Shown: positions 14,315 to 15,424, counted from the first letter of the stretch. The stretch: 64,000 nt of DNA from Rickettsiales bacterium (GCA_044237845.1 JBIIEL010000004.1:8812-72811), one strand, 5' to 3'. Translations and numbers: made by a program. The notes: a model not told the origin generated them from the letters alone.

Positions 14315-15424
14315 CTAGCTCTCCTCAGTATTACTCACAAAAAACGGTAGGGGTGGGGGTTCTTTTTCACCGCGGTATTTTTCGATGGTTTGCAGCATCT
14401 CGACGAGCAGTGGTTCGAGGTCTTGCCGTGCCGCGGCGGATATGGTGTGGACAGTAGCCGGTAGCCGGTAGCCGGTAGCCAGTGATCCAGTTTTCTTACT
14501 GGCGACTAGCGACTGGCTACTGGCTACTGCCTTCTCCAGCGCTTTCTTTTTCTTTTTGATCTCGGCGGCGGTGAGGGCGTCGCACTTATTTAATGCGACG
14601 AGTTCGGGCTTTTCGGCGAGGTCGTCGTTGAACTGCGCGATCTCGTGGCGGATGGTTTCGTAGCTGGCGACGACATCGTCTGCCGTGCCATCGACGAGAT
14701 GCAGCAGCACGCCGCAACGCTCCACATGGCCGAGGAAGCGGGTGCCAAGCCCCTTGCCCTCCGCCGCGCCCTCGATGAGGCCGGGGATATCGGCCAGCAC
14801 GAACTCGGTATCGCCCACCGACACGACGCCAAGCTGCGGCGCGAGGGTGGTGAACGGGTAATCCGCGATTTTGGGTTTGGCCGCCGTAACGGCGGCGAGG
14901 AAGGTGGACTTGCCCGCGTTCGGCAGGCCGAGAAGCCCGGCGTCCGACAGCAATTTCAGCTTGAGCCAGAGGGTGCGCTCCTCACCTTTGCCAGCGGGGA
15001 CGGATTGCACCGGCGCCTGGTTGGTGGAGGATTTGAAATGCATGTTGCCGAGCCCGCCGCGGCCACCTTGGGCGATGACGATTTCCTGATCGCCATGGGT
15101 GAAATCGGCGAGCAGCGTCTCGCGGTCTTCGTCGTAAATCTGGGTGCCGACGGGGACGAGGAGGATCATGTCTTCTGCGCCTTTGCCGTAGCGCTGCTTG
15201 CCCATGCCGTGGCCGCCCTTGGCGCCTTTGAAATGCTGCTGGAAGCGGTAATCGATGAGGGTGTTGAGGCCGGTGACTGCCTTCATGACGATGCTGGCGC
15301 CGCGCCCGCCATCGCCACCATCCGGCCCGCCCTCGGGGATGAATTTCTCGCGCCTAAACGACACGCAGCCCTCGCCGCCGTCGCCGGCTTTGACGTAGAT
15401 TTTGGTTTCATCGACGAAGTGCAT
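14315..15424 (-). CDS. obgE: GTPase Obg/CgtA
   Basis: Gly-rich Obg fold '[28 protein letters not shown]', then G1 'GLPNAGKST', G3 'DIPGLIEGA' and G4 'LNKCD'. Confidence 0.95.
14455..14529. repeat. 75-nt heptamer tandem-repeat hairpin inserted in-frame within obg
   Basis: TAGCCGG x3 plus TAGCCAG lie at 14455-14482. There is a 16-nt spacer, then CTGGCGA CTAGCGA CTGGCTA CTGGCTA at 14499-14526. The two arrays are largely reverse-complementary. Confidence 0.75.

Follow-up and report, generated by a model that had tools for sequence, protein, structure and literature searches.

The gene for Obg, an essential and highly conserved GTPase, can accommodate a translated hairpin made of tandem heptamers. 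In an uncultured, free-living lake alphaproteobacterium from a clade other than Rickettsia, obg contains a block of 25 codons composed of two inverted heptamer arrays and the loop between them, and this insert is confirmed here as real, in frame and lineage-specific. It is one copy of a lineage-wide class of heptamer-array hairpins, some of them intergenic and others lying in frame within genes. We favor the reading, with a probability of roughly 0.55, that the obg block is a passenger repeat, which arose by slippage or template switching at native seeds and is tolerated in a permissive loop of the protein. Earlier descriptions of tandem-heptamer hairpins, from cyanobacteria and Xanthomonas, are mostly of intergenic copies, and our literature search turned up no case of a heptamer hairpin translated within an essential protein gene, nor of any heptamer hairpin in Alphaproteobacteria.

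The DNA analyzed is a single stretch of 64,000 nucleotides, referred to below as the window (W). It is compared with the obg loci of relatives (L001, L003, L009, L089, L169, L170 and L171), all metagenome contigs, and statements about the hairpin class as a whole cover the 64-kb window together with these fetched loci.

The heptamer hairpin in obg

The obg gene of the window lies downstream of rplU and rpmA. Its product matches the Pfam domains GTP1_OBG (4e-58) and MMR_HSR1 (5e-25), and it retains all of the invariant columns in a 26-sequence alignment. The gene and the parts of the insert are as follows.

14315..15424, minus strand: obg (GTPase Obg/CgtA), 369 aa, intact, in the canonical rplU-rpmA-obg locus (ORF list)
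14453..14527, minus strand: inserted block of 25 codons (V300-T324) at a place occupied in orthologues by 4-5 codons (SGGD or similar), as seen in alignments and a codon-level comparison with empty sites
14500..14527, minus strand: 5' arm, in the obg sense GTAGCCA GTAGCCA GTCGCTA GTCGCCA
14482..14499, minus strand: loop of 18 nt, GTAAGAAAACTGGATCAC, which encodes SKKTGS and is unique in the window
14454..14481, minus strand: 3' arm, in the obg sense TGGCTAC CGGCTAC CGGCTAC CGGCTAC
14444..14543, no strand assigned: the whole stem-loop as predicted, to which native obg sequence flanking the arrays on both sides contributes a few additional pairs (both strands folded with ViennaRNA)

Counted in heptamer phase, the element spans 74 nt (four units, 18 nt and four units). 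A first-pass annotation of the sequence had placed the repeats exactly: on the plus strand, three copies of TAGCCGG and one of TAGCCAG occupy 14455-14482, a 16-nt spacer follows (14483-14498), and the second array, CTGGCGA CTAGCGA CTGGCTA CTGGCTA, runs from 14499 to 14526. Tandem Repeats Finder reports the same structure as period-7 arrays at 14454-14480 (100% matches) and 14497-14529 (84%). The same annotation held that the two arrays can pair imperfectly, and both a repeat search and folding agree. The search found inverted arms of 41 nt with 76% complementarity, and the obg-sense RNA folds at -46.4 kcal/mol, compared with -29.4 +/- 3.2 for 200 shuffled sequences (z = -5.26; 0/200 as good).

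The insert stands in frame, upstream of VHTISAA, and the 25-codon block first estimated at Obg residues ~299-323 proves to be V300-T324. Alignment with orthologues puts a lineage-specific insert at that very place, with a net gain of ~21 residues. From NKCD (G4) to TISAA (G5) there are 53 intervening residues in the window protein and 32-33 in 113/121 Obg homologues, and the connector is short in nearly all alphaproteobacterial Obg proteins, as the first-pass annotation had proposed; typical relatives read ...ALEKASGGDVFTISAA. Nor is the segment ancestral, since distant Alphaproteobacteria are without it and a related insert occurs only in two members of the same clade. HMMER alignments to the E. 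coli ObgE structures end exactly at residue 301, and a protein search restricted to the insert region returned no match.

Assemblers are well known to stumble over hairpins and short tandem repeats, and the block could in principle reflect a chimeric join, a collapsed repeat or a sequencing error. Three lake-water metagenome runs, each from a different study, have contigs that cross the hairpin without a single difference or gap (one of the runs may be the source sample of the window assembly), and this agreement shows that the block is not an assembly artefact. Two further points speak against such an origin, which is effectively refuted: the frame is preserved with a stop codon specifically avoided, as described below, and independent assemblies of relatives contain related inserts at the same site. 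Two lake metagenomes (runs X2 and X3) show a three- to six-fold increase in contig depth over the arm at 14494-14535. Because the increase is confined to this arm, similar (A)GTCGCC-type arrays evidently exist on other contigs of those lake communities.

Where does the insert fall in the protein? An AlphaFold2 model of middling quality, built on a shallow 26-row alignment (mean pLDDT 68.5), would place it at a helix-to-strand junction, between the helix that follows G4 (NKCD) and the strand with G5 (TISA). In this model the helix extends over residues 286-310, a low-confidence coil over 311-324 (pLDDT ~52) and the G5 strand over 325-327, with confidently predicted flanks (84-96), much as had been anticipated for a loop. 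Unrelated inserts of 5-14 aa occupy the same loop in several other Obg lineages, and the insertion site is therefore permissive.

The surroundings of obg have features of their own. Between rpmA and obg lies a 13-bp bidirectional terminator-like hairpin (15493-15522) with T-runs on both strands. The genes obg and proB are usually adjacent, as in L001 and L171, and in the window this adjacency is broken by two ORFs (12209-14312). One encodes a pentapeptide-repeat protein of 549 aa (12663..14312, minus strand), whose N- and C-terminal stretches look hydrophobic by eye; the other is a 145-aa ORF on the opposite strand (12209..12646). The obg-proB junctions of L003 and L169 hold other insertions.

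Other copies and their shared design

Two further heptamer hairpins are found in intergenic DNA of the window.

7499..7585, no strand assigned: hairpin of (GTGAGTG)x4, an 18-nt loop and five TCACAAC-type units, abutting the gpmI start codon (7496)
12064..12100, no strand assigned: small hairpin whose 6-bp stem encloses about three GTCGCTA units (identical to unit 3 of the obg 5' arm), upstream of proB

Both had been listed as relatives of the obg hairpin in the first-pass annotation. The description fits the first (given as 7502-7585) in full; the second does contain heptamer units, but it is a smaller structure, a 6-bp stem. At the place orthologous to 12064-12100, L001 and L089 have TTCAC-type arrays.

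The site upstream of gpmI is instructive with respect to origin, as arrays are also present at the orthologous positions in L001 and L003. The loops of W and L001 hold the core ..TGCTAATC.., and the array-free L170 and L171 have ..CTGCTA.. there. Because the loop core exists in relatives that have no array, the arrays at gpmI evidently grew around native sequence. The 5' arm of L001 likewise begins inside native GCAGCGGTGA, which is common to L170. A likeness between the gpmI loop of W and the obg loop of L001 (AGGCTCTT) was dropped, being within chance by a rough estimate. In all three loci (window 7499-7533, L001 16464-16487, L003 10585-10610), the array on the gpmI side is separated from the start codon by 4-5 nt (CACTCACTAAACATG in the window), too few to accommodate a Shine-Dalgarno sequence. 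The start-proximal units, CACTCAC and CATTCAC, resemble the 3' end of 16S rRNA and not its complement.

Period-7 arrays are frequent in this clade, with eight in the 21 kb of L001 and four in the 64-kb window, compared with 16 in 1,323 kb from the obg loci of 80 other Alphaproteobacteria, where periods 6 and 9 dominate. The enrichment over those 80 loci is 5- to 30-fold and is confined to period 7. A few unrelated lineages (L122, L088 and L140) have heptamer hairpins of their own.

Copies also occur in frame within genes other than obg. In L001, heptamer arrays add 8 aa at the N terminus of argC and 6 aa internally. The L001 argC gene starts inside an array (168-206), in which (ACGAATC)n encodes MTNHESRITNHE, and its internal, single-armed (AGTCGYC)x4 array (857-889) encodes SRQSSVVS, a peptide also present in the Obg insert of L001. 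In L169, pstA has an in-frame copy just past its start codon, giving an N-terminal stretch of 23 residues (RQSP...RRATN) where L089 has 8. This copy is a full hairpin (5448-5521), and the pstA start codon that precedes it overlaps the pstC stop. The pstC-pstA junction of L001 contains a decayed remnant (5550-5765) in a frame different from that of pstA, whose start lies further downstream; the remnant looks like a frameshifted former N-terminal extension. For annotation, the warning is that where core proteins of this clade have an additional 15-25 residues, the segment is derived from repeats and is not a new domain.

The three coding hairpins (W obg, L001 obg and L169 pstA) can be aligned gap-free along their 74 nt, each consisting of four units, 18 nt and four units, with the consensus (GTCGCCA)4-N18-(TGGCGAC)4. 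Their loops begin with GTA and end with TCAC, all three enter the reading frame in the same phase, with a Val codon, and the two obg loops have AGTAAGAAA in common. When arm position i is matched with position 75-i, 82% of the cells pair, and at most 51% do so when the partner is slid. Two-sided changes between copies, a modest signal that rests on three sequences (the observed values were reached by 35/500 and 21/500 shuffles), occur at six pairs, with A-T replaced by C-G at unit position 3 and C-G by T-A at position 5. Units within an array are often identical (CGGCTAC three times; TCACGAC three times), so changes have evidently spread from unit to unit. The arms thus differ between lineages yet remain complementary.

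Translation places its own constraint on these arrays. A heptamer does not divide into whole codons, so an array is translated in each of the three phases, and for the same reason the frame visibly filters which units and mismatches can exist. The third unit of W is GTCGCTA, with C for A, and GTAGCCA at that place would give an in-frame TAG. In L001, a perfect partner for either arm (GTCGTGA or TGACGAC) would bring in TGA, and each unit has a C.C mismatch instead. A homogeneous perfect hairpin of W units (GTAGCCR) or of L001 units (GTCGTCA/TCACGAC) would contain an in-frame TAG or TGA. Stop avoidance does not explain every mismatch; this stronger proposal was rejected, the one-way forced cases being pair 17-58 in W and pairs 13-62 and 20-55 in L001. 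We also rejected the suggestion that the stop-free consensus unit is special, as 50% of all heptamers are stop-free on both arms. All of the intergenic TCAC/GTGA-type units have TGA on one arm, which fits with their absence from genes.

The two strands of these hairpins do not fold equally well. For obg (14440-14545), the antisense strand folds at -59.0 kcal/mol and the obg-sense strand at -48.6, and the three mismatches that are A.C on the mRNA strand are G.U on the antisense strand. An antisense advantage of 4-11 kcal/mol is found in 5/7 of the two-armed heptamer hairpins compared in this way, the other two being tied; the comparison included 14440-14545 and 7490-7595 of the window and 90-225, 1240-1345 and 10880-10985 of L001. 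The cause could be a mutation bias specific to one strand, or selection that disfavors stable duplexes in the mRNA, such as substrates of RNase III.

Origin of the obg insert

The relatives provide a natural series at a single obg site: empty, filled by a full hairpin of one unit, filled by a full hairpin of another unit, and occupied by a one-armed remnant. The L001 insert occupies the site that is filled in W; it has the 4+18+4 design, its right junction is that of W (...AC followed by T GTC), and its units are GTCGTCA and TCACGAC. In L003, a 54-nt remnant has lost the 3' arm, and over the first 33 nt it agrees with the 5' arm and the beginning of the loop in L001 at 22 positions (hand count, gap-free). 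The sites of L169, L170, L171, L009 and L089 are empty and keep an outgroup-like ASG motif. Scans for Obg in genome contigs and in metagenome contigs turned up one close relative each, L009 and L089, both of the empty-site kind.

A tree of 15 linked genes (4,232 columns) branches as W, then L170, then L169, then (L001,(L003,L009,L089,L171)). A single origin in a clade of W and L001 is rejected by these genes (AU p = 2e-4), although it was compatible with the Obg tree taken by itself (p = 0.51), and a clade of W, L001 and L003 is likewise rejected by the 15-gene tree (AU p = 1e-137). Lateral transfer of an insert-bearing obg segment was also discarded; identity in the flanks is not raised between carriers, and no recombination signal was found in the obg flanks of the carriers. 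Considering that the carriers are not monophyletic and give no sign of recombination, the site has experienced either repeated gain at one codon, two or three times, or one old gain followed by several precise losses. Either could be correct, and each is demanding and unusual.

The first-pass annotation likened the block to small palindromic repeats that invade ORFs while preserving the frame. In its fuller form, an explanation by invasion has a discrete, non-autonomous element of ~74 nt, of the MITE, REPIN or RPE type, landing in obg independently in several lineages, copied by an enzyme encoded elsewhere or inserted by homology-guided templating with a preference for GTCGCC...GGCGAC targets. 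Much about the coding copies is in keeping with such an element. Three copies, from three genomes and two genes, have one length, one 4+18+4 design, one entry frame and common loop ends, with units one or two changes away from GTCGCCA. The two obg inserts are identical at 45/74 positions and are no closer to each other than to the pstA copy of L169 (48/74 for W and 46/74 for L001), while the non-monophyletic carriers and the outgroup-like ASG of the empty sites favor repeated gain. Insertion in one step would also sidestep the frameshifts of stepwise growth, and the hairpins of L122 do have unit and loop in common between loci, like a dispersed family. Other evidence counts against a pre-formed element. 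By the criteria used for MITEs, the arms are themselves inverted repeats, but no target-site duplication is visible at the obg junctions and no terminal inverted repeats are present at the element beyond the arrays. Units vary between the window loci (GTGAGTG, GTCGCTA, GTAGCCG), the obg loop and unit have no second copy in the 64 kb, the gpmI loop is native sequence, and no transposase is linked to the hairpins in the window and the fetched loci. With native unit-like seeds in addition (see below), the case for invasion by a pre-formed element, and for transposition as the mechanism, falls short, and we regard a discrete mobile element as possible but distinctly less probable than a passenger repeat.

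For growth in place, native sequence at several sites offers a starting point. The empty obg site reads GCC AGC GGC GGC GAC GTC, in which GGCGAC supplies six of the seven bases of TGGCGAC, and the empty site of L169 has CAC GAC, close to the L001 unit TCACGAC. Unit-like native sequence is also found at the argC site in L169 (GTC GCC TGC GGT GAC) and at the pstA site in L089 (GTG GCC AGT). The obg loop itself has no native counterpart in the empty sites.

How might a passenger hairpin arise from such sequences? The simplest explanation we can offer is that a short native seed resembling one heptamer unit was present at the obg site and was extended into arrays by replication slippage, template switching or both. 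Once the strand could fold, one arm could template the repair of the other, so that the arms would stay complementary and their changes would be concerted or compensatory. In an essential gene, the survivors would be those versions that keep the frame, are free of stops and lie at a permissive site in the protein. We infer the seeding and templating steps from the patterns above, and take the absence of function as an assumption. The passenger reading is supported by the lack of a copy-and-paste signature: each locus has a heptamer unit of its own, and the window contains a single copy of the obg loop and unit.

Several observations weigh against the passenger reading. A passive origin in situ needs two or three events at one codon or several precise losses; the three coding copies have one size and design, as expected for a discrete element; and stop avoidance forces only some of the single mismatches. 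Stepwise growth inside an essential gene would be hard, because one added heptamer shifts the frame. A single, larger templated event fits obg better, given that the loop is non-native and that single-unit steps shift the frame.

A bolder proposal, which we consider doubtful, is that heptamer hairpins are a form of transposase-independent mobile DNA, homing to unit-like sites (GTCGCC...GGCGAC) by template switching, after which the arms copy-correct each other. The targets would be common Val-Ala and Gly-Asp codon pairs. If true, such homing would explain how the same codon of an essential gene was colonized independently in separate lineages, and copy-correction through the folded strand would let each copy evolve its own unit and remain a hairpin.

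Alternatively, the hairpin may be retained for a function, as an mRNA structure, a barrier to antisense transcription, a DNA cruciform or protein-binding site, or a flexible loop of Obg. A candidate mRNA role would be a structure in the obg message that tunes translation or decay, and a candidate barrier would be terminator-like, with the stem on the plus strand followed by TTTCTTTTTCTTTTT at 14543-14557. Pairing is indeed preserved through two-sided changes, the insert is identical in three independent lake samples, and the same obg site is occupied in three lineages; many copies lie right at start codons (gpmI, proB, argC and pstA), and the antisense folding bias, with its G.U in place of A.C mismatches, could likewise be read as a sign of selection. 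Against this, the hairpin is absent from 5/8 clade members and from 113/121 homologues, L003 still has an intact protein with one arm of its copy gone, and the peptide is not conserved between W and L001. A terminator scan did not call the obg hairpin, and Rfam gave no structured RNA family at gathering score, with just two plant miRNA-precursor models below threshold (26.2 bits against a gathering score of 120, and 24.9 bits against 197). RNA runs contained only conserved fragments from relatives and no transcript match to the hairpin. Self-templated repair can keep the arms paired without selection. A retained function appears improbable.

Comparison with known repeat systems

The STRR heptamers of heterocystous cyanobacteria reportedly include one copy that lengthens helix P12 in the RNase P RNA gene. 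Their canonical units are CCCCAGT, TTGGTCA and CAACAGT. STRRs are tandem heptamers dispersed genome-wide, mostly intergenic but at times in a functional gene whose function is kept, and in the RNase P RNA copy both helix strands are made of repeats, as in obg. As with STRRs, a 7-nt tandem unit is found here at many loci and is over-represented relative to other periods by the 5- to 30-fold given above. The differences are that the host belongs to another phylum, that none of the units is canonical (GTAGCCG, GTCGCCA, GTGAGTG, TTCACCA and others, in an alphaproteobacterium), and that the unit varies from locus to locus, whereas STRRs form three fixed families. In addition, the obg repeat is translated and hence bound to the frame and to freedom from stops. 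The series of states at the obg site could settle both the origin of repeats of this type and the persistence of their arm pairing.

The closest described analogues of the obg class are these cyanobacterial heptamers and the four-unit heptamers of Xanthomonas and Nostoc. Rehm et al. 2015 (PMC4692102) described G-rich heptamers, GGGAATC in Xanthomonas and GGGGA(C/T)T in Nostoc. They reported that certain bacteria have an excess of heptamers, that arrays of four units are preferred, and that inverted pairs with the potential to fold into stem-loops occur occasionally; they also relay the idea that polymerase slippage favors 7-nt units. The obg class resembles these repeats in its lineage-specific excess, its array length of about four units, its location within ~50 bp of gene starts or ends, the inverted pairs, and the variation in length and sequence at the same intergenic sites between close relatives. 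In contrast to them, the obg-class units have no G-tracts (GGG occurs in no unit, and a G-quadruplex heptamer has a tract of at least 3 per unit), pair as hairpins and lie in frame inside genes.

The Rickettsia palindromic elements (RPEs) are palindromic repeats that lie in frame inside housekeeping genes and add a surface segment to the protein. They are roughly 100-150 nt long and have family consensus sequences, not tandem heptamers. To our knowledge, RPEs are restricted to Rickettsia. The first-pass annotation had likened the obg block to RPEs, and as far as behavior is concerned the likeness stands, for a palindromic repeat is tolerated in frame in a housekeeping gene whose coding is undisrupted. 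Membership in the family, judged by length, architecture and host, is rejected: the element is 74 nt long and built of 7-nt tandem units that vary from copy to copy, and its host lies outside Rickettsia.

REPINs were described by Bertels and Rainey 2011 (PMC3116915) as REP doublets that form hairpins and are mobilized by RAYT transposases. Like the obg class, they are dispersed hairpins of 70-110 nt with two inverted short repeats and regular mismatches. REPIN arms, however, derive from one REP that is conserved genome-wide, and REPINs are extragenic; the arms of the obg class are internally repetitive and locus-specific, and the hairpins enter genes. No RAYT was found in the window and the fetched loci. 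Membership in the REPIN/REP family thus fails on arm conservation, as the arms differ between the three window loci and between relatives.

L122 is a metagenome contig of a more distant alphaproteobacterium (Obg 56% identical), and its hairpin family has more of the character of a MITE than do the copies of the window clade. The family is built from its own units, TTCGTGC/GAAGCAC, and its copies at 2048-2076, 4724-4757, 8839-8919 and 10328-10350 have a common loop (TTAAAATTACC), one of them with outer inverted repeats.
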